NCBI RefSeq assembly: GCF_000186885.1
Contig: NC_014972.1
Coordinates: 2,700,001-2,732,000 of the forward strand
DNA: 32,000 bases
Direction: 5' to 3'
Source of the DNA: Desulfobulbus propionicus DSM 2032
Lineage (GTDB): Bacteria > Desulfobacterota > Desulfobulbia > Desulfobulbales > Desulfobulbaceae
Shown: positions 545 to 30,817 of the stretch, one piece after another
Layout: every line of letters begins with the position of its first letter
How positions within the stretch are numbered: the stretch's first letter is position 1
Notes under the pieces: model-generated
What the model was told of the DNA's origin: nothing
The model's input: the letters and a program-made list of their open reading frames with translations, nothing else
Database searches by the model: none
Translations under genes and position numbers: made by a program

Positions 545-2470
545 ATGCAGCTTGACGCAAAGATACCTGAAGGACCGATAGCCGAAAAATGGGACAAATG
601 CCGTTTTTCCAATAAACTCGTTAACCCTGCCAACAAACGCAAATACGAAGTTATTATCGTAGGAACCGGTCTGGCGGGCGCATCCGCCGCCGCGACGCTC
701 GGCGAACTGGGCTACAATGTCAAATCGTTCTGCATCCAGGATAGCCCCCGGCGCGCTCATTCCATCGCAGCCCAAGGTGGCATCAATGCCGCCAAGAACT
801 ATCAGGGTGATGGCGACTCGATTTTCCGTCTGTTCTATGACACGGTCAAGGGTGGCGACTTCCGCGCTCGCGAGGCCAACGTCTATCGCCTGGCTCAAGT
901 ATCCAACAACATTATTGACCAGTGCGTGGCCCAAGGCGTGCCCTTTGCCCGTGAATACGGTGGAACATTGGCCAACCGCTCTTTTGGTGGTGCCCAGGTT
1001 TCCCGTACCTTCTATGCCCGTGGTCAGACGGGGCAGCAGTTGCTCCTTGGCGCCTACACCGCCATGATGCGTCAGGTCGCCACCGGCAAGGTAAAAATGT
1101 ATACCCGTCGTGAAATGATGGATCTGGTTGTTGTTGACGGCGTTGCCAAGGGCATCATCGTTCGCAATCTGGTGACTGGCGAGATCGAGAAGTACTCGGC
1201 CCATGCGGTGGTGCTCGCCACCGGCGGATACGGCAATGTGTACTTCCTGTCCACCAACGCCATGGCCTCCAACGTCACCGCCGCTTACCGTTCCTATAAA
1301 CGTGGTGCTGGTTTCGCTAATCCTTGCTTTGTCCAGATTCACCCGACGTGTATTCCGGTCCATGGTGAGTTCCAGTCCAAATTGACCCTGATGAGCGAGA
1401 GTTTGCGCAACGATGGCCGGGTATGGGTTCCCAAGGCCAAAGGCGACAAACGGCACCCCAACGACATCCCTGAGGATGAACGTGATTACTACCTCGAGCG
1501 GAAATATCCGTCATTCGGTAACCTCGTTCCCCGCGACGTTGCCTCTCGTAACGCCAAGCAGGCTTGCGACGAAGGCCATGGTATCGGTGAGACCGGATTG
1601 GGTGTGTACCTTGATTTTGCCGATGCCATCAAGCGCGACGGTCTGGATGTGGTCATGAGAAAGTATGGAAACCTGTTCCATATGTACCAGAAAATCACTG
1701 ACAGCGATCCGACCAAAGAGCCGATGCAAATTTATCCGGCTATTCACTATACCATGGGCGGTCTCTGGGTCGACTATCACCTGATGACCACTGTCCCAGG
1801 TCTGTACGCCACCGGTGAGTGTAACTTCTCCGACCATGGAGCTAACCGCTTGGGTGCTTCCGCACTGATGCAAGGCTTGGCTGACGGGTATTTCGTCCTG
1901 CCCTACACGATCGGTAACTATCTAGCCACCGTTCCGCCGGTTCCGACCAATACCAACGATCCGGCCTTTGAGGCGGCGGCTAACGAAGTGAAAGATCAGA
2001 TCGCCAAGCTTCTGAAAAATACCAAGAGCGGTAAAGGTGGGCAGACCGTTGATCATTACCATAAAGAACTGGGTAAGATCATGTGGGATTACTGCGGCAT
2101 GGCTCGGAAAAAGGAAGGTCTTGAGTATGCCCTGAAGAGAATTCCCGAGATCCGCGCTGAATTCTGGGAGAACGTGGTTGTCCCCGGATCCGGTCAGGAA
2201 CTCAACCAATCCCTGGAGCGTGCCGGTCGTGTCGCTGATTTCCTCGAGTTCGGCGAACTTTTGGTGCGCGATGCACTCCAACGCGAGGAATCCTGCGGCG
2301 GTCACTTCAGAGAAGAAAGCCAGACAGAGGAAAACGAAGCCAAACGTGACGATGCAAACTTCAGCTATGTAGCCGTTTGGGAGTACAAAGGACAAGGAAC
2401 AGCCCCGGCGTTGCATAAAGAGCCGCTGACCTTTGAGTACGTCACTCCTTCACAGCGTAGCTACAAGTAA
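545..2470 (+). CDS. sdhA: Succinate dehydrogenase/fumarate reductase flavoprotein subunit
   Basis: 641 aa. N-terminal FAD Rossmann motif [28 protein letters not shown] contains the His used for covalent FAD attachment. A conserved HYTMGG and a C-terminal [10 protein letters not shown] are also present. Flanked by sdhC and sdhB. Confidence 0.95.
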
Positions 2471-2538
2471 TGTAGATCTGTACACTTGTATAAACAGTTT
2501 CATCACTGAAGTCTAAAATACAACGCAGAAGAAAGCTC

Positions 2539-3303
2539 ATGTCATCGAAAACGATCAATATAATAGTAAAAATTTGGCGACAGAATGGTCCTCTGGCTCA
2601 AGGCGCTTTTGAGGAACATGCTCTCAAGGACATCAGCACCGACAGCTCCTTCCTGGAAATGATCGACGTGCTCAACGAATGGCTGACCATCAAAGGTCTG
2701 GAACCCATCGCCTTTGACCACGACTGCCGTGAGGGTATTTGCGGTATGTGCGGTGCGGTGGTCAATGGTACGGCTCACGGCCCTGACAAGGAAACCACCC
2801 TGTGCCAGCTGCACATGCGCCGCTTTAAAAACGGCGACACCATTGTCATCGAACCCTTCCGCTCTCAGGGGTTCCCGATTGTCAAGGATCTGATCGTCGA
2901 CCGCTCCGCCCTGGATCGGATTATTGCCGCTGGCGGCTATGTCTCGGTCAATACCGGCTCCCCCCAGGACGGCAACACCATTCTTATCCCGCAGCACGTG
3001 GCCGAGCAAGCCATGGATGCCGCAGCCTGCATTGGCTGCGGCGCCTGCGCAGCGGCATGTCCCAACGGAACCCCGATGCTCTTCCTCGGTGCAAAAGTTT
3101 CTCAGTTTGCCCTTCTGCCCCAAGGACAACTGGAAGCCAAAAAGCGGGCCATCAACATGGTTATGCAGATGGACAAGGAAGGTTTCGGTAACTGCGGCAA
3201 CGAGCGCGAGTGTGAAAATGTTTGCCCGAAAGGTATCACCATCCGCAATATTGCTCGCTTGAACAGAGAATTTCTCAAGGCATCGTTCACCATTGATCAC
3301 TGA
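2539..3303 (+). CDS. sdhB: Succinate dehydrogenase/fumarate reductase iron-sulfur subunit
   Basis: 254 aa with three Cys clusters: [10 protein letters not shown] (2Fe-2S), [12 protein letters not shown] (4Fe-4S) and CENVCPKGI (3Fe-4S). Confidence 0.95.
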
Positions 3304-3628: not shown

Positions 3629-5467
3629 ATGAAATCAATCCCTCGTATCAACTATTTCATAGCCCTATCAGTCTACCTGGTGGTCATTGCATGGAACATT
3701 TGGTGGACCTTTACGTGGCTCTATCATCAACGATTGCAGGATTTGGCCGAGGAAGGAGCCAGTCGACTCGAACTCTACATGACCTATCTCCAGGGCGTTC
3801 TCGAAAAATACGAACATCTGCCGGAACTCCTGGCCAATGACCGTATTTTGATCGACTTGCTCAATGGGCATCTCGGTGCCAACGAAATCGACTTTCTCAA
3901 TCAATACCTTGAAAAGATCAACCGCATCAGCCATGCCTCGGACACCTACCTCATGAACAGCGAAGGATTAACCATCGCTGCCAGCAATTGGCAGGAACCC
4001 GCCCCCTTTGTCGGACAAAATTTCAGCTACCGCCCATACTTTCAACAAGCGATGCAAGGCCGGCTCGGCAAATATTTTGCGCTAGGCAACACCTCGAGCG
4101 TACGGGGGTACTATTTTGCCTATCCTGTCCGCCACAAGGAAAAAATTCTTGGTGTCTTGAGCATTAAAATCAACATCGATACCGTGGAACACAACTGGGG
4201 GCGGGAAGAACAAACCTTTCTTGTCACCGATCCCGATGGAGTCATCTTTTTATCAACCAACCAGAACTGGCGGTTCCGAACGCTTGCCCCACTCACCGAG
4301 TCCGCTCATCAACGGATTACCGACAGCCGCAGGTATCCGAATGCCTCCTTGACCGCCTTGAAAATGTTCACCGAGGAAAGCAACGATTCAGGCAGGATTA
4401 TTCAACTCAGCACCTCGCCCCACGAAAAGACGCGGGAATACCTGCTCCAGACCAAAACCATGGAACAAGCGGGATGGAATGTTCATATTTTCACCGACAC
4501 CTGGAGAGTAGAGCGTTTTGTCTTTTTTGTCTTCATAGCAATGAATGCGGTGCTCGCCCTCAGCGTTTTGCTGAGTCTGCTCTTCAAACAACGACGTCAG
4601 CGGATCAATGACCTCAAATGTTTTGAAGAGCAATCGCGGAAGGTACTGCAAGAGGCCAATGAACGACTTGAAACCAGAGTCACTGAACGCACTCAAGAAT
4701 TGACGGAGGCCAACACCATGCTCCGCAAGGAGATTGAAGATCGCAAACGGATGGAAATCGCTCTGCGAAACACCCGGTCAGAACTCACCCATGCAGCAAA
4801 AATGGCCGCTCTTGGTCAAATGTCCGCGGGAATTAGCCATGAATTGAACCAACCGCTTGCCGCCATCCGTAGTTATTCCGACAATGGCCGTCTTTTTTTG
4901 GAGAAAGGACGGTTTGATGAAGCGATGTGGAACCTCGAACAGATCAGCGAGCTCACCGAGCGTATGGCCCAGATTGGCGTGCAGTTGCGACAATTTTCCC
5001 GTAAATCCAGCGGGCAGCTCAGCAAAGTCCCATTGCATGGAGTGATTGATGGTGCGCTGGAAATTCTTAATCCGATCCTTCGGAAATCCGATGTGTGGGT
5101 CAAGGTGGTCATTGACCCCCCTGAGCTCGATGTCCGTGCCAACCACGTTTTGTTGCAACAGGTCATCGTCAATTTGGTCAGCAATGCACTCCATGCGGTC
5201 GAAGGAATGCCGCACCAGGAAATCAAGATCCGAGGCTACCGCCAGGAAGGCAAGGTGTTGCTGAGCGTTGCCGACAGCGGGCCAGGCATTTCACCCGAAC
5301 ATCTACCCCACATTTTCGAGCCGTTCTACACCACCAAACAAAGCGGTCAGGGATTGGGACTCGGTTTGACCATCACCGAACGGATTCTCCATGAAATGAA
5401 CGGCGCAATTCGAGTCATGGAAAATAACGGCGGGGCGAAATTCGTGTGTACTCTTGAGGAAGCATAA
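3629..5467 (+). CDS. dctB: Sensor histidine kinase, DctB-like (periplasmic Cache-type sensor, two TM helices)
   Basis: 612 aa. TM1 is INYFIALSVYLVVIAWNIWW. About 270 aa of periplasmic region follows, then TM2 FVFFVFIAMNAVLALSVLLSLLF and a coiled coil. The H-box is GISHELNQPL and the G-box is SGQGLGLGL. The gene lies next to an NtrC-family regulator and a TRAP dctPQM cluster. C4-dicarboxylate specificity is inferred from this context. Confidence 0.8.
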   Translation: MKSIPRINYFIALSVYLVVIAWNIWWTFTWLYHQRLQDLAEEGASRLELYMTYLQGVLEKYEHLPELLANDRILIDLLNGHLGANEIDFLNQYLEKINRISHASDTYLMNSEGLTIAASNWQEPAPFVGQNFSYRPYFQQAMQGRLGKYFALGNTSSVRGYYFAYPVRHKEKILGVLSIKINIDTVEHNWGREEQTFLVTDPDGVIFLSTNQNWRFRTLAPLTESAHQRITDSRRYPNASLTALKMFTEESNDSGRIIQLSTSPHEKTREYLLQTKTMEQAGWNVHIFTDTWRVERFVFFVFIAMNAVLALSVLLSLLFKQRRQRINDLKCFEEQSRKVLQEANERLETRVTERTQELTEANTMLRKEIEDRKRMEIALRNTRSELTHAAKMAALGQMSAGISHELNQPLAAIRSYSDNGRLFLEKGRFDEAMWNLEQISELTERMAQIGVQLRQFSRKSSGQLSKVPLHGVIDGALEILNPILRKSDVWVKVVIDPPELDVRANHVLLQQVIVNLVSNALHAVEGMPHQEIKIRGYRQEGKVLLSVADSGPGISPEHLPHIFEPFYTTKQSGQGLGLGLTITERILHEMNGAIRVMENNGGAKFVCTLEEA

Positions 5468-26578: not shown

Positions 26579-26607
26579 GACTGACTGAACCCGAACAAGG
26601 AATCCCT

Positions 26608-27135
26608 ATGAAACAGTTTGGCGGCCCCGCGGCCTTTATCGATAGAAGCGACATTAACACCGACGAAATCATCCCGGCCAAGTATCTGACCGAAATCACC
26701 AAAAAAGCCTTGGCTCCGCACCTACTGGAAGACCTCTACCTGGAAGGCCAGAAATTTGACCCGCATTCCCCGGAGATGCAGGAGGCGCGGGTGCTGATCA
26801 CCCGTTCCAACTTCGGTTGCGGTTCCTCCCGCGAGCATGCGGTCTGGGCCCTGGAGGTCAACGACATCAACGTGGTCATCGGCGAGAGCTTTGCCCGGAT
26901 CTTCCGTCAGAACATGTTCAACTGCGGCATCCTGGCGGTGGAACTGAGCAAGGACGATCTGGACCGCTTGTTTGCCCTCAAGGGCAAGGTGACGGTGGCG
27001 GTGGATCTGGAAGGGGAAAAACTGACCGCCACCAGTGGCGATGCCAAGGTTGAATGCGCTTTCAGCCTGAATCCGTTTGACAAGAAGCTGATCGGCGCCG
27101 GGGGGTGGCTGGCGTTCGCGGATGCGAATTATTGA
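26608..27135 (+). CDS. leuD: Aconitase-family dehydratase small subunit (LeuD-like)
   Basis: MKQFGGPAAFIDRSDINTDEIIPAKYL start with AAGGA upstream, and the signature NFGCGSSREHAVWAL. The track ORF start at 26575 is rejected. Confidence 0.88.
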   Translation: MKQFGGPAAFIDRSDINTDEIIPAKYLTEITKKALAPHLLEDLYLEGQKFDPHSPEMQEARVLITRSNFGCGSSREHAVWALEVNDINVVIGESFARIFRQNMFNCGILAVELSKDDLDRLFALKGKVTVAVDLEGEKLTATSGDAKVECAFSLNPFDKKLIGAGGWLAFADANY

Positions 27136-27154
27136 GGTTTGATGATTTGTTGAT

Positions 27155-27182
27155 GGTGGGCACAACTGCGTGCCCACCCTAC
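27155..27182 (-). repeat. REP-like palindromic element A
   Basis: GGTGGGCAC-aactgc-GTGCCCACC-CTAC. Read on the - strand it is GTAG-GGTGGGCAC-gcagtt-GTGCCCACC. It lies 20 nt after the leuD stop, so it may also terminate leuD. Confidence 0.8.
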
Positions 27183-27218
27183 CCGGCTCACCCAACGTGC
27201 TTTTCGCAGAAAACTGTA

Positions 27219-28058
27219 ATGTCTACCGAGTATCCCTTTTCCTCTACCCAGATCGCTATGGCCTTGGCTACCCTACACCAAGAGGCTTCCAAGAAAACCG
27301 AAAATGGTTTCTTCATGCTCAAGGCCAATTACGAAGCCGACAACATGGAAATTAGCACCACCCGCCTAGGCCGGGCAGCAGGTTACACCAACTACAATAC
27401 TGCCAACGAACAGTATGGCTCTTTTGCCCATCGCGTCTGTGACAAACTCGACTATACCCCGGACAAACGAGCTGATGGCAGTCCGATATGGACCTCGGTG
27501 CTTTGCGAGGAGAGTGCGGAAAAGGACCATCAGGGCCACTTTCAGTGGAAGCTTCGGCACCAAGTCGCCAAGGCCTTGGAATCCCTCGGTCTAGTCAAAC
27601 CAATACCCCGGACTGACCTGCTTGATGACATCGCGATTAGAGAGAACGAATTGGCCAACTATTCAGCCAAAGACCGGGAGGCTATCGTCAAGGCCCGCAT
27701 TGGTCAAGGGGAGTTCCGCAAGCGACTGATCCGCTTCTGGGGTGGCTGCGCCGTTACCAGCTGCGACTGCATGGAAATTCTGGTTGCCTCTCACATTAAG
27801 CCTTGGCGCGACTGTGTCGGCAAGGAGGCCATTGATCAAATGAACGGCTTGCTGCTCTTGCCCAATCTGGACCGAGCCTTTGACCGCGGTTTGATCAGCT
27901 TTACTGACGATGGCCAAATCCTCATGGCCCGGGCACTCACCGATAACCTCGCCAAAACCCTAGGGATTAACCAGGATATGCGGCTTCGGAAAATCTTGCA
28001 CTATCACCATGTCTATCTAAAATATCATCGGCAACACATTTTCATGGAGAATTTATAA
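27219..28058 (+). CDS. HNH endonuclease (HNH_2-type C-terminal nuclease domain; N-terminal ~170 aa of unknown function)
   Basis: The C-terminal region RIGQGEFRKRLIRFWGGCAVTSC...LVASHIKPW...NGLLLLPNLDRAFDRGLISF matches the pattern of stand-alone HNH (PF13391-like) nucleases. The start is placed at the ATG at 27219 because the upstream part of the track ORF runs through REP-A. No SD is visible. Confidence 0.75.
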   Translation: MSTEYPFSSTQIAMALATLHQEASKKTENGFFMLKANYEADNMEISTTRLGRAAGYTNYNTANEQYGSFAHRVCDKLDYTPDKRADGSPIWTSVLCEESAEKDHQGHFQWKLRHQVAKALESLGLVKPIPRTDLLDDIAIRENELANYSAKDREAIVKARIGQGEFRKRLIRFWGGCAVTSCDCMEILVASHIKPWRDCVGKEAIDQMNGLLLLPNLDRAFDRGLISFTDDGQILMARALTDNLAKTLGINQDMRLRKILHYHHVYLKYHRQHIFMENL

Positions 28059-28073
28059 AAATCGGAAAACCTG

Positions 28074-28103
28074 GTAGGGTGGGCACGGTTGTATCGTGCC
28101 CAC
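28074..28103 (+). repeat. REP-like palindromic element B
   Basis: GTAG-GGTGGGCAC-ggttgtatc-GTGCCCAC. It is in the opposite orientation to A and C. It lies 15 nt after the HNH stop and 43 nt before the RAYT ATG. Confidence 0.8.
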
Positions 28104-28146
28104 TAACACAATTGAAACCATAACACCCGCCCCCTCAAACAATCCC

Positions 28147-28668
28147 ATGCCCAACTACCGCCGCGCCATTACCCCGGGCGGCACCTTTTTCTTCACCGTC
28201 GTCACCTATCGGCGCAGGTTGCTGTTCGATCATCCCGAAGCTCGGCGTATCCTGCGGCAAACGGTTCGGGAGGTCCAATCCAGATACCCTTTCATCATCG
28301 ACGCCTGGGTGCTTCTTCCGGACCACCTGCACTGCATCTGGACCCTGCCGCCCGATGACGCCGACTTCTCCCTGCGCTGGAACCGGATCAAATCCACCTT
28401 TTCCAAACAGGCCAAGTCATTATTTCATAATGAACAATGGGTAAGCGATTCGCAACGCAAACACCGGGAATCCACCATCTGGCAGCGACGATTCTGGGAA
28501 CATCGGATCAGAAATGAGGACGAATACCGGATAGGTACGGACTACATCCATTACAATCCGGTCAAGCATGGCTGGGCAAACCAGGTGGCGGACTGGCCAT
28601 TTTCCACCTTCCATCGGTCTGTGCGGGCAGGGATTTATCCGGTTGATTTGGGGTGGGCAAAGGGATGA
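28147..28668 (+). CDS. REP-associated tyrosine transposase (RAYT; IS200/IS605-like Y1 HUH enzyme)
   Basis: 173 aa from the ATG at 28147. MPNYRRAITPGGTFFFTVVTYRRR is a typical RAYT N-terminus. The HUH motif is LPDHLHCIW and the catalytic Tyr region is TDYIHYNPVKHGW. It is flanked by REP hairpins in inverted orientation. Confidence 0.88.
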   Translation: MPNYRRAITPGGTFFFTVVTYRRRLLFDHPEARRILRQTVREVQSRYPFIIDAWVLLPDHLHCIWTLPPDDADFSLRWNRIKSTFSKQAKSLFHNEQWVSDSQRKHRESTIWQRRFWEHRIRNEDEYRIGTDYIHYNPVKHGWANQVADWPFSTFHRSVRAGIYPVDLGWAKG

Positions 28669-28705
28669 AGCTGCCCCGCGCGGGTTTGGTGAATAAATCA
28701 CTTCT

Positions 28706-28736
28706 CGGTGGCCATGGTACAACTGTGCCCACCCTA
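28706..28736 (-). repeat. REP-like element C (degenerate)
   Basis: ggtggccatGGTACaactGTGCCCACC-CTAC. It retains the exact 13-mer GTAGGGTGGGCAC on the - strand, but the other arm is disrupted. Confidence 0.65.
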
Positions 28737-28762
28737 CTTACAATAACGGAAGATTAATCGCT

Positions 28763-29170
28763 ATGATCCAACCTGAAATCGAAAAACACCTCCGCAACGA
28801 TGCCTTTGCCCAATGGCTGGGCGCCACCATTGAAACCATCGAACCGGGCTACAGCCGGGTGTCACTGGTGGTGAGTGAATCGATGCTCAACTTCCACCGC
28901 ATGACCCACGGCGGGTTGGTGTTTGCCCTGGGTGACATCGCCTTTGGCGCCGCCAGCAACTCGCACGGCCAGACCGCCCTGGCTCTCAATGTGGCCATCA
29001 ACTTTGTCCGCGCCACTGGGGTGGGCGATCACCTGGTGGCCGAGGCCAAAGAGGTGCAACAGGGCGGAACCATCGCCCTGTACGATATCGTGGTCAGCGA
29101 ACGGAACAGCGGCCAACTGGTTGCCAAGAGCCAGGCCACGGTGTACCGTAAACGGCAATCCTTTGTCTGA
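28763..29170 (+). CDS. PaaI/YbgC-type hotdog-fold thioesterase
   Basis: 135 aa. The NFHRMTHGGLVFALGDIAFGAA motif and the size are typical of PaaI-family thioesterases. Confidence 0.8.
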   Translation: MIQPEIEKHLRNDAFAQWLGATIETIEPGYSRVSLVVSESMLNFHRMTHGGLVFALGDIAFGAASNSHGQTALALNVAINFVRATGVGDHLVAEAKEVQQGGTIALYDIVVSERNSGQLVAKSQATVYRKRQSFV

Positions 29171-29245
29171 AAGACCTCACCGTCTAGGGCGACCGGCCTT
29201 TCCCGATCCAACCGTTCAACTTGTTCCGCCCGGCGCTGCCGAGCC

Positions 29246-30436
29246 ATGAGGCGTACCATGGAAAACGCATTTTCCGACCGCATCACCGATGTCCCCAAGT
29301 CCTTCATTCGCGAGATCCTCAAAGTCACCATTGACTCCTCGATCATCTCCTTTGCCGGCGGCCTGCCCAACCGCACGTTCTTTCCGGTCAAGGGGCTGCA
29401 ACAGGCGGCCCATGACGTCTTCGAGGAGGCGGGCAACGAGATCCTCCAATACTCGAACTCCGAGGGCTATCTCGGCCTGCGCCAGTTCATCGCCGACCGC
29501 TACCGCACCCAGCAGGGGCTGGAAATTCCGGTCGAGGACATCCTCATCACCACCGGTTCGCAGCAGGGGCTCGATCTGCTCGGCAAGACCTTCCTCAACG
29601 AAGGCGACGACCTGATCATCGAGGAACCGGGCTACCTTGGTGCCATCCAGGCCTTTGCCATGTACCGGCCCCGCTTCCACCCGGTGCCGGTGTTTGAGGG
29701 CGGCATGGACATCGACAAGTTGGCCCAGGTGCTCAGGGAGCGGCAGCCAAAGCTGCTCTACACGGTGACCAATTTCCAGAATCCGAGCGGCATCAGCTAC
29801 AGCGATGACAACCGCAGGGCCGTGGCCGAGCTGGTGCAGGGCCGCTCCTGCCTGATCATCCAGGACGATCCCTATGGCGACCTGCGTTTCTCCGGCACGC
29901 CCAAAGTCTCGTTCAAGCGTCTTCTCTCCGCCAACACCGTGCTGCTCGGTTCATTCTCGAAAACCGTGGCCCCGGCCCTGCGTCTGGGCTGGCTGGTGGC
30001 GCCGCCGCCGATCATGGACAAGCTGGTGATCGCCAAACAGGCAGCGGACCTGCACACCGACTATCTGGCGCAGCGCATCCTCTACCGATTCCTCTGCGAC
30101 AACGACATTGATGCCCATATCGCCACCATCATCCGCCAGTACGGCAAACAGAAGGAGGCGATGATCAGCGCGATCAAAGACTCCTTTCCCGCCGGGGTGC
30201 AGTCCACCAACCCGGAGGGCGGCATGTTTCTCTGGGTCACCCTGCCCGAAGGAATCTCGTCGATGGCCCTGTTCGAGGCGGCCATCAAGAAAAAGGTTGC
30301 CTTTGTGCCGGGAACCCCTTTCTATGTGGACCGCAAGGACAGCAATACCCTACGCCTGAACTTTTCCTGCTCGGATGAACCGACCATCGTCGAGGGGATC
30401 AAACGTTTGGGCCAATCCATCAAGGAACTTTTGTAA
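29246..30436 (+). CDS. PLP-dependent aminotransferase, class I/II (2-aminoadipate/aromatic aminotransferase-like)
   Basis: 396 aa. FSDRI...SFIREILK at the N-terminus, YSNSEGYLGLR, QNPSG, and SFSKTVAPALRLGW (the PLP Lys). The start could be the ATG at 29246 or at 29258. Confidence 0.85.
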   Translation: MRRTMENAFSDRITDVPKSFIREILKVTIDSSIISFAGGLPNRTFFPVKGLQQAAHDVFEEAGNEILQYSNSEGYLGLRQFIADRYRTQQGLEIPVEDILITTGSQQGLDLLGKTFLNEGDDLIIEEPGYLGAIQAFAMYRPRFHPVPVFEGGMDIDKLAQVLRERQPKLLYTVTNFQNPSGISYSDDNRRAVAELVQGRSCLIIQDDPYGDLRFSGTPKVSFKRLLSANTVLLGSFSKTVAPALRLGWLVAPPPIMDKLVIAKQAADLHTDYLAQRILYRFLCDNDIDAHIATIIRQYGKQKEAMISAIKDSFPAGVQSTNPEGGMFLWVTLPEGISSMALFEAAIKKKVAFVPGTPFYVDRKDSNTLRLNFSCSDEPTIVEGIKRLGQSIKELL

Positions 30437-30454
30437 AAAAGAAAGGAGGCATCC

Positions 30455-30817
30455 ATGTTCACCACCAAGAAAATAGCCTGCACCTGCACTGCCCTGGCCC
30501 TCTGTGCCGTGATGCTTTTCGGCTGCGGCGAGGATCAGGAGAAAAAAACGGAGAAAAAAGATGTAACCGTCCAACAGCAGCTGGGCAAGGACGCGGCGCA
30601 AAGCGTGCAACAACCGCTGGAAGACGCGCGCAAGGCAGCTGAGCAGGCAGGAGAAAAGGCCACGCAGGTGATCGACAGCGCTGCGGAAAAAACAAAGGAA
30701 GCGGTCAATGAGACCGTGAAGCAGGCCGATCAGGTGATCGAGGCTGCGGCCGAAAAGGCCAAAGAGGCTGCCCAGGAAACAGAGGGCAAAGAGAAGAAAA
30801 AGCTGGAAGGCTGCTAA
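30455..30817 (+). CDS. Small lipoprotein, Ala/Glu/Lys-rich
   Basis: Strong RBS AAAGGAGG. The signal peptide has the lipobox MLFGC. The mature part is low-complexity and helical, with recurring AAEK.KEA segments. Confidence 0.7.
   Translation: MFTTKKIACTCTALALCAVMLFGCGEDQEKKTEKKDVTVQQQLGKDAAQSVQQPLEDARKAAEQAGEKATQVIDSAAEKTKEAVNETVKQADQVIEAAAEKAKEAAQETEGKEKKKLEGC

Follow-up and report, generated by a model that had tools for sequence, protein, structure and literature searches.

A putative restriction-type HNH nuclease gene in the REP-bounded gap beside a RAYT gene of Desulfobulbus propionicus

REP-associated tyrosine transposases (RAYTs) and their repetitive extragenic palindromes (REPs) are regarded as domesticated, vertically inherited systems that move only short REP or REPIN (REP doublet) sequences. 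How, then, does a protein-coding gene come to lie between two REPs next to a RAYT gene? This question is raised by a 32-kb stretch of the Desulfobulbus propionicus DSM 2032 chromosome (NC_014972.1, positions 2,700,001 to 2,732,000; hereafter the window, in whose own numbering positions are given), where three REPs (A, B and C) bracket a 279-aa HNH nuclease gene and a 173-aa RAYT gene between leuD and a paaI-like gene. A preliminary description had likened the whole unit to an insertion and had proposed that the nuclease is either cargo of the RAYT or its functional partner. Here, we consider it probable that the locus is a vertically inherited REPtron (a RAYT gene with its REPs) of a known kind, that the HNH gene is an orphaned accessory nuclease gene of a Type I restriction-modification (R-M) system captured between REPs A and B, and that its pairing with the RAYT is positional and not functional.

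The RAYT locus and its variable gap

The 173-aa protein had been assigned to the RAYT/REP system of this genome pending a profile search, and the search bears the assignment out. The protein scored 199.4 bits against the NCBIfam model NF047646 (REP-associated tyrosine transposase, REP_Tyr_transpos; cutoff 80) and 31.5 bits against Pfam Y1_Tnp (PF01797; cutoff 23), and its score against NF033573 (transpos_IS200) was 27.9 bits, below the cutoff of 55. It aligned with E. coli TnpAREP (PDB 4ER8) at an E value of 2.6e-45 across both the HUH and the Tyr motifs. HUH is H60-L-H62 (H59/H61 in E. coli), the catalytic Tyr lies within DYIHYNPVKH (Y115 in E. coli), the Asn/His of helix alpha-D after the Tyr are also conserved, and the motif residues are invariant across 14 homologues. 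By these matches the protein is a bona fide RAYT, the only one encoded in the window.

Cognate, GTAG-footed REPs flank this gene, B on the + strand and C on the - strand, and the same layout was found in contigs L217, L224 and L050. The 13-mer GTAGGGTGGGCAC occurs in three exact copies in the 32 kb, at 27170-27182 (-), 28074-28086 (+) and 28725-28737 (-), the last of them 1 nt away from its first placement at 28724-28736. The count was 0 in 100 dinucleotide-preserving shuffles, no fourth copy was found when the window was scanned with up to two mismatches, and a generic scan of the whole window for a GTAG foot with a G+C-rich hairpin matched A and B only. As first described, A and B fold as hairpins and C is degenerate: the stems of A and B measure 10 bp at -11.6 kcal/mol as DNA (z -3.4 for A and -4.9 for B), and C reaches -7.2 kcal/mol (z -2.1), with two mismatches in its distal arm. 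In L217 and L224, the hairpin of the C orthologue is intact. The inverted arrangement also stood: B and C form 30-nt inverted repeats, 87% complementary, around the 173-aa open reading frame (ORF), and A and B are inverted around the 279-aa ORF. Pairing of C with a partial arm in the RAYT 3' end fared less well. The arm is there (28651-28662, a 12-nt match to C at 92%, in the coding sequence for LGWA), but a functional GGGTGGGCA arm was rejected, as the pairing is not conserved in L217, whose REP C owns an intact arm; we read this extra arm as probably incidental.

The same locus was found in two related contigs. L217, a metagenomic relative whose RAYT has 76% aa identity to that of D. propionicus, is syntenic with the window over 10 kb, in the order SBP, leuC, leuD, REP A, other genes, REP B, RAYT, REP C, paaI, aminotransferase, DnaJ and peptidase S13. 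Nucleotide identity in the RAYT segment, about 77%, equals that in the flanking housekeeping genes (75-84%). The leuD gene is 84% identical at the nucleotide level to L217 3190-3804, and the alignment continues through REP A, the orthologue of which lies at L217 3765-3792 in the same place and orientation. L224 (RAYT 82%) begins at REP B and carries REP B, RAYT, intact REP C, paaI and aminotransferase; the REP B orthologues are at L217 4929-4959 and L224 8-35. In D. rhabdoformis, the RAYT (70%) is at another locus and likewise lies between two REPs. Because of the synteny with L217 and L224 and of the break-points described below, the RAYT and the three REPs would be ancestral at the leuD-paaI site, with turnover confined to the A-B gap, and the REPtron appears to be inherited vertically at this site in the D. 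propionicus lineage.

The limits of the slot were resolved to the base pair. In blastn comparisons with L217, window positions 26581-27194 and 28074-30639 aligned, and nothing in between did. The break-points, confirmed by direct alignments, are 27194/27195, about 12 nt past REP A, and 28073/28074, exactly at the G of the REP B GTAG. In D. propionicus, the slot measures 879 bp and holds only an hsdS relic and the HNH gene, and in L217 it holds 1124 bp of other content without an HNH gene. The L217 slot has ORFs for a 142-aa lipoprotein-like protein, a 100-aa zinc-ribbon protein and a DUF4160 fragment (30 aa); the first two were considered as decayed HNH genes and dismissed, as tblastn gave no similarity. 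Its right part (4585-4930) contains, beside the DUF4160 fragment, a footless partial duplicate of REP B that has an internal 12-nt repeat, and ~150 nt from the 5' end of the RAYT gene; these remnants testify to earlier rearrangements at REP B.

REPs of the same family were sought with the pattern GTAGGGTGGGCAC-N4-12-GTGCCCAC over genome contigs. The GTAG plus GGTGGGCAC hairpin was found in at least 120 contigs from beta-/gamma-proteobacteria, Syntrophobacterales and Desulfarculales, where the RAYTs framed by it are 50-54% identical to that of D. propionicus. Close doublets were arranged '+ then -' in 26 of 30 cases, with spacers mostly of 16-36 nt, and are REPIN/BIME-like (BIME, bacterial interspersed mosaic element) with GTAG feet outward. 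REPs B and C, which frame the RAYT gene, follow this '+ then -' polarity, and so do their counterparts in relatives and other phyla, and the A...B pair around the HNH gene has the reverse. Ordinary housekeeping genes are also REP-bracketed in REP-bearing genomes, L050 being one example. In the Desulfobulbus DNA examined (~30 kb of the window and ~9 kb each of L217 and L219), no REP was seen outside the RAYT locus, so the REP population of Desulfobulbus may be small. Separately, many metagenome contigs with RAYT homologues are just ~1-2.6 kb long, and many of those with the RAYT or close homologues (L002, L004, L009, L011, L218, L224 and L220-L223) start within a few hundred bases upstream of the RAYT, several right at REP B, which suggests that the assemblies of those genomes broke where REPs are repeated.

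The RAYT of D. propionicus is shorter than its kin, which typically have 182 aa; relative to L217 and L224, its gene has gained 1 nt close to the 3' end, and the stop comes 9 codons early as a result. The ancestral ...FGE stop (TTTGGTGAATAA) is still legible downstream. The lost tail is acidic and matches in position the auto-inhibitory C-terminal extension of E. coli TnpAREP, the removal of which raised cleavage activity (PMC3479197). The truncation (28640-28700) lies beside the degenerate REP C and could represent erosion or de-repression.

An hsdS remnant and the source of the nuclease gene

The 279-aa protein matched Pfam HNH_2 (PF13391) at aa 177-228 with 40.3 bits (cutoff 21) and the PADLOC HNH model with 87 bits, and Type II restriction endonuclease models matched as well. 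It has all 24 invariant columns of the family, and H192, N209 and N216 are invariant or near-invariant. An AlphaFold model from 42 full-length homologues (pLDDT 93) found its best solved fold matches in two modification-dependent HNH restriction endonucleases, VcaM4I (6YEX; Foldseek E 6e-11, 25% identity) and TagI (6GHS). The model suggests that the protein shares with both enzymes a two-domain plan of an N-terminal DNA-reader and a C-terminal HNH domain; unlike theirs, its N-terminal domain is helical in the model, with no EVE or SRA barrel. Matches of the N-terminal 130 residues, which are helical, to winged-helix (MarR-type) folds were weak (E above 0.06), and the domain is possibly winged-helix-like. 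Judged by these features, the protein would be an orphan restriction-type nuclease.

Its relatives point to Type I R-M systems. The closest relatives with long contigs (P0002, P0004 and P0010; 74, 73 and 65% identity) are encoded by the fourth gene of an operon, directly after hsdS in hsdR-hsdM-hsdS, with an ATG that overlaps the hsdS stop. These operons lie amid GmrSD, Mrr and AAA_15 defence genes and have no RAYT beside the nuclease gene. More distant family members are solitary between housekeeping genes or lie in defence islands. Type I R-M operons can harbour accessory nucleases, PrrC in the prr locus being one example. The translational coupling of the HNH relatives to hsdS is of this kind, and the D. 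propionicus gene differs from it in being an orphan with 32 nt of hsdS left; the 32-kb window contains no R-M gene and specifically no Type I hsd gene.

The 32 nt were recognised by nucleotide homology to contigs L132 and L134, which begins 32 nt before the HNH ATG, inside their hsdS. In D. propionicus, CTCACCCAACGTGCTTTTCGCAGAAAACTGTAATG encodes LTQRAFRRKL*, and the hsdS C-terminus of L132 is LTQRAFRGEL*. The relic keeps the TAATG stop/start overlap with the HNH gene, and its GGAG Shine-Dalgarno sequence has decayed, which accounts for the absence of a Shine-Dalgarno sequence before the HNH gene. As noted earlier, none is visible before the HNH gene or the RAYT gene, judged by reading. The earlier impression that the HNH gene is more AT-rich than leuCD was confirmed: GC and GC at third codon positions are 0.52/0.63 in the HNH gene, 0.62/0.85 in leuC, 0.58/0.76 in leuD and 0.60/0.75 in paaI. 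Because the hsdS relic was retained, the HNH gene would stem from a Type I R-M operon and would not have travelled as a REP-gene-REP unit. The alignments indicate that it is a fragment of such an operon put into the REP A-REP B gap.

The event may be pictured as follows. A REPtron made of a single RAYT, an HUH/Y1 single-strand DNA nuclease-transposase, framed by REPs B and C and with REP A behind leuD, would have received a horizontally acquired donor piece, comprising 32 nt from the end of hsdS, the HNH ORF and ~15 nt downstream, in its A-B spacer. Illegitimate, microhomology-assisted recombination at a site that REP hairpins or RAYT nicking made fragile would be the likeliest route. The HNH gene would then look bracketed only since it lies in a gap with REPs as its conserved borders, and these did not travel with it. 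We infer this mechanism, and likewise the direction of the event, as a gain in D. propionicus versus a later replacement in the relative, and any present-day activity of the HNH protein or the RAYT.

Short homologies were found at both junctions. At the left, the hsdS relic has 8 nt (CTCACCCA) in common with the native spacer, which in L217 reads CTCAACCA; at the right, ATAGGGTGG, which follows the HNH gene in one donor-like operon, agrees with the beginning of REP B. These sequences are compatible with microhomology-assisted illegitimate recombination, and they are too short to prove it.

Several side observations concern the HNH family. Between hsdR and hsdM of L134, whose operon's HNH protein is 73% identical to that of D. 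propionicus, a 268-bp unit is repeated 5.2 times (1650-3220; 97% identity), and this array with its edges has 13 alternating REPs of the type GTAGGGTGCGT...ACGCACC. In L225 and L227 (4880-5000 in each), a conserved element of ~100 nt lies directly 5' of the HNH genes in two unrelated genomic contexts; it ends in a terminator-like hairpin (CCCCGGCCATCGYGCCGGG + TTTTCG), had no Rfam match and may travel with the HNH gene. In L147 (3779-6810), a distant family member (36% identity) lies directly 3' of an aconitase-family gene, as the HNH gene follows leuD, which is probably a coincidence.

Partnership, capture or coincidence

If the nuclease and the RAYT formed a functional two-gene module like TnpA with TnpB or IscB, in which the HNH protein cuts empty or target sites or processes REP DNA, the two genes should be found together. 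The preliminary description had suggested looking for such co-occurrence in other genomes. An HNH family member with a RAYT beside it was found at 1 of 85 metagenomic loci and at 0 of 80 viral-contig loci, and scans of viral contigs for the HNH protein, the RAYT and the REP of the single positive case, from peat, gave no further RAYT-HNH adjacency; about 170 other HNH loci lack a RAYT. Conversely, no HNH gene was present among the matches listed for the at least 120 REP-pattern loci, four of them with an intact RAYT, nor at the other RAYT loci examined; six RAYT loci other than that of the window had no HNH gene beside them. L217 keeps the RAYT and the REPs without the HNH gene, the nearest relatives of both the window HNH and the peat HNH lack a RAYT, and the conserved partner of the HNH family is hsdS and not the RAYT. 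In the literature searched, we found no paper linking RAYTs with HNH nucleases and no description of REPs in Desulfobulbus. What speaks for a module is that the two genes share a strand with 88 nt between them, with no promoter or terminator found there, and that the gene order repeats in the peat case. A partnership is largely refuted by the missing co-occurrence, and we regard it as extremely improbable.

The peat case consists of three metagenome contigs, L151 (1-1446), L229 (1-1091) and L230 (1-1052), which overlap into a closed 1480-bp cycle: HNH (271 aa), REP(+), RAYT, REP(-), 21 nt and the same HNH again. The HNH protein and the RAYT (118 bits against NF047646) are 38 and 30% identical to their D. 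propionicus counterparts, and the REP, GTAGCGCGGACCGC..., differs from that of the window. The closest relatives of the peat HNH (79 and 71%) have neither RAYT nor REPs, so the peat case would be a second, independent juxtaposition. A chimeric assembly via the 31-nt REP was considered and rejected, since in L229 and L230 the RAYT sequence continues for 60 nt or more past the REP, on either side of the HNH gene. No contig exits the cycle, and the RAYT copy of L151 has a 1-nt deletion relative to L229; the cycle reflects either a small circle or a tandem duplication via the two REP(-) copies, which are in direct orientation. Another gene next to a RAYT was seen in a Gallionellaceae metagenome-assembled genome (L087 6009-7497), where a RAYT is followed by a REP, a DUF2971 gene with a GC of 44% (flanks 60-65%) and a further REP, and the block lies inside a hyp (hydrogenase maturation) operon. 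Together with L217, these two cases suggest, in a small sample, that REP gaps beside RAYTs attract foreign genes.

Such cases are also what one would expect if the RAYT itself had captured the gene, by acting preferentially in cis on its flanking REPs, nicking single-stranded DNA at the feet of REP A and REP B and joining a foreign single strand or exchanging the segment; the HNH gene would then be true cargo. In addition to the peat cycle and the REP-bracketed, low-GC DUF2971 gene, this would fit the limits of the slot, which lie within 0-12 nt of REP A and REP B, its different content in two related species and the duplicate of REP B and the RAYT 5' end in L217. Furthermore, E. coli TnpAREP cleaves and strand-transfers in vitro (PMC3333891, PMC3479197), and the auto-inhibitory tail of that enzyme has no counterpart in the D. 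propionicus RAYT. Against this, the insert has an hsdS relic and brings no REP, and REPs A and B are on opposite strands with a polarity that is the reverse of the mobile-looking doublets. REP bracketing extends to the housekeeping genes mentioned above, no second copy of the unit was seen, and RAYTs are not known to catalyse the insertion of foreign genes. Capture by the RAYT is therefore unlikely in our judgement. For the cargo idea, what survives is a variable slot delimited by REP A and REP B and one independent HNH-REP-RAYT module; neither mobilisation by the RAYT nor a functional partnership is supported as first stated, in view of the hsdS relic, the reversed polarity, the L217 slot without an HNH gene, the survey and the closest relatives in R-M operons.

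At the other extreme, the bracketing could be incidental and the REPs without any role, as any gene in the leuD-RAYT gap would be flanked by A and B, the REPs being the only conserved non-coding sequence. REPs do mark intergenic gaps generally, and HNH family members are also inserted between housekeeping genes without any REP. Foreign-looking genes in the RAYT-adjacent REP gap, however, were found at 3 of ~6 RAYT loci with visible flanks (the window, L217 and L087), and the peat module repeats the polarity of the window. We consider a purely incidental bracketing very unlikely.

Some observations weigh against the probable reading, that of a fragment of an R-M operon placed in the gap of an inherited REPtron without a functional tie to the RAYT. 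The slot is visible in one relative only (L217). The right junction coincides to the nucleotide with the GTAG foot recognised by RAYTs, and the insert is trimmed nearly to the ORF, which fits RAYT-catalysed cut-and-join too. The microhomologies are short, with CTCAxCCA at the left, and TAGGGTGG at the right is present in L134 alone. In addition, the peat set, from an independent lineage, has the order and polarity of the window, REP(-) HNH REP(+) RAYT REP(-), and one RAYT neighbour among ~90 loci would arise by chance only ~4% of the time, by a rough estimate.

Taken as a single case, the locus mainly explains away an apparent RAYT-nuclease pairing. It is a case, resolved to the base pair, in which a protein-coding gene was placed precisely between two REPs belonging to a REPtron, and the donor, a Type I R-M operon, is identifiable through the hsdS relic. 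A broader and doubtful view is that REP gaps flanking RAYTs are active sites of gene capture and exchange, in which RAYT nicking makes the gaps fragile or joins foreign strands. Small defence-type genes would then land there repeatedly (HNH in D. propionicus and in peat, DUF2971 in Gallionellaceae, zinc-ribbon/DUF4160 in the Desulfobulbus relative), and the peat module would be tandem-amplified or a 1.48-kb circle; this too we hold to be unlikely. If the recurrence in the peat contigs and the Gallionellaceae genome were general, the flanks of REPtrons would be integration hot spots for defence genes, of a class not recognised before, and the HNH-RAYT cycle would merit direct study.

Comparable systems and layout of the locus

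The nearest precedent for this locus is found in E. coli strains in which the REPtron is replaced by hicAB (PMC3333891). Both cases involve the exchange of small genes of the defence or toxin type at a REPtron with REPs or BIMEs at its borders; the difference is that D. propionicus keeps its RAYT and the foreign gene lies beside it. The REPtron of E. coli K-12 (yafM, 4ER8; PMC3333891, PMC3479197) is also similar, with its Y1 HUH, Tyr and alpha-D Asn/His residues and its inverted REPs with 5' GTAG, and the D. propionicus RAYT is likewise the sole RAYT of its window, at a locus shared with relatives. Unlike the E. coli system, the D. propionicus RAYT is without the acidic auto-inhibitory tail, one flanking REP is degenerate, no other REP was seen in 30 kb and a protein-coding passenger lies between the left REPs.

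Like the REPINs of Pseudomonas fluorescens SBW25 (PMC3116915), the locus has two inverted REPs cognate to a RAYT, and doublets of the D. propionicus REP type occur in other genomes. The A/B pair was considered as a REPIN with a long spacer and set aside: its spacer is 891 nt long and holds a gene, its polarity is '- then +' and no second copy was seen. With the IS200/IS605 family (tnpA with tnpB or iscB), the locus shares a Y1 transposase gene beside a nuclease gene between subterminal hairpins. It differs in the placement of its hairpins on opposite strands, in not being a repeated unit and in its nuclease, a restriction-type HNH_2 protein and not TnpB or IscB. One IS200/IS605 element from A to C was likewise rejected, as the REPs alternate in strand, L217 has the same ends with another interior and the chromosomal context is constant.

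The features of the locus are collected in Table 1. In the region from 26900 to 28900, neither a sigma-70-like promoter nor a + strand terminator was found, and Rfam gave no match in the region or in related loci.

Table 1. Features of the leuD-paaI interval, in window coordinates
Feature	Position	Strand	Basis or remark
leuD (small subunit of 3-isopropylmalate dehydratase)	26605..27135	+	Pfam Aconitase_C 72 bits; conserved left flank
REP A, GTAG foot and 10-bp hairpin (GTAGGGTGGGCACGCAGTTGTGCCCACC)	27155..27182	-	19 nt past leuD stop
Relic of hsdS 3' end of a Type I system (LTQRAFRRKL*)	27187..27218	+	Nucleotide homology; alignment to L132/L134
Variable slot between REP A and REP B	27195..28073	none	Homology to syntenic relative L217 lost
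HNH nuclease gene Despr_2369, 279 aa (predicted)	27219..28058	+	Pfam HNH_2, PADLOC, fold match
REP B, GTAG foot and 10-bp hairpin; left end of REPtron	28074..28103	+	15 nt past HNH stop
RAYT/TnpA-REP gene Despr_2370, 173 aa	28147..28668	+	NF047646, Y1_Tnp, 4ER8
Former 3' tail of RAYT ORF, out of frame today	28669..28696	+	Alignment with L217 and L224
REP C, GTAG foot and proximal arm intact, distal arm degenerate; right end of REPtron	28707..28737	-	
PaaI-like hotdog thioesterase gene Despr_2371	28763..29170	+	Pfam 4HBT, TIGR02286; syntenic in L217 and L224

The HNH, RAYT and PaaI-like proteins are identical to Despr_2369, Despr_2370 and Despr_2371 of D. propionicus DSM 2032. Among the matches listed, the identical HNH protein was present in 18 contigs, all with the same chromosomal context, and the RAYT likewise at six places.

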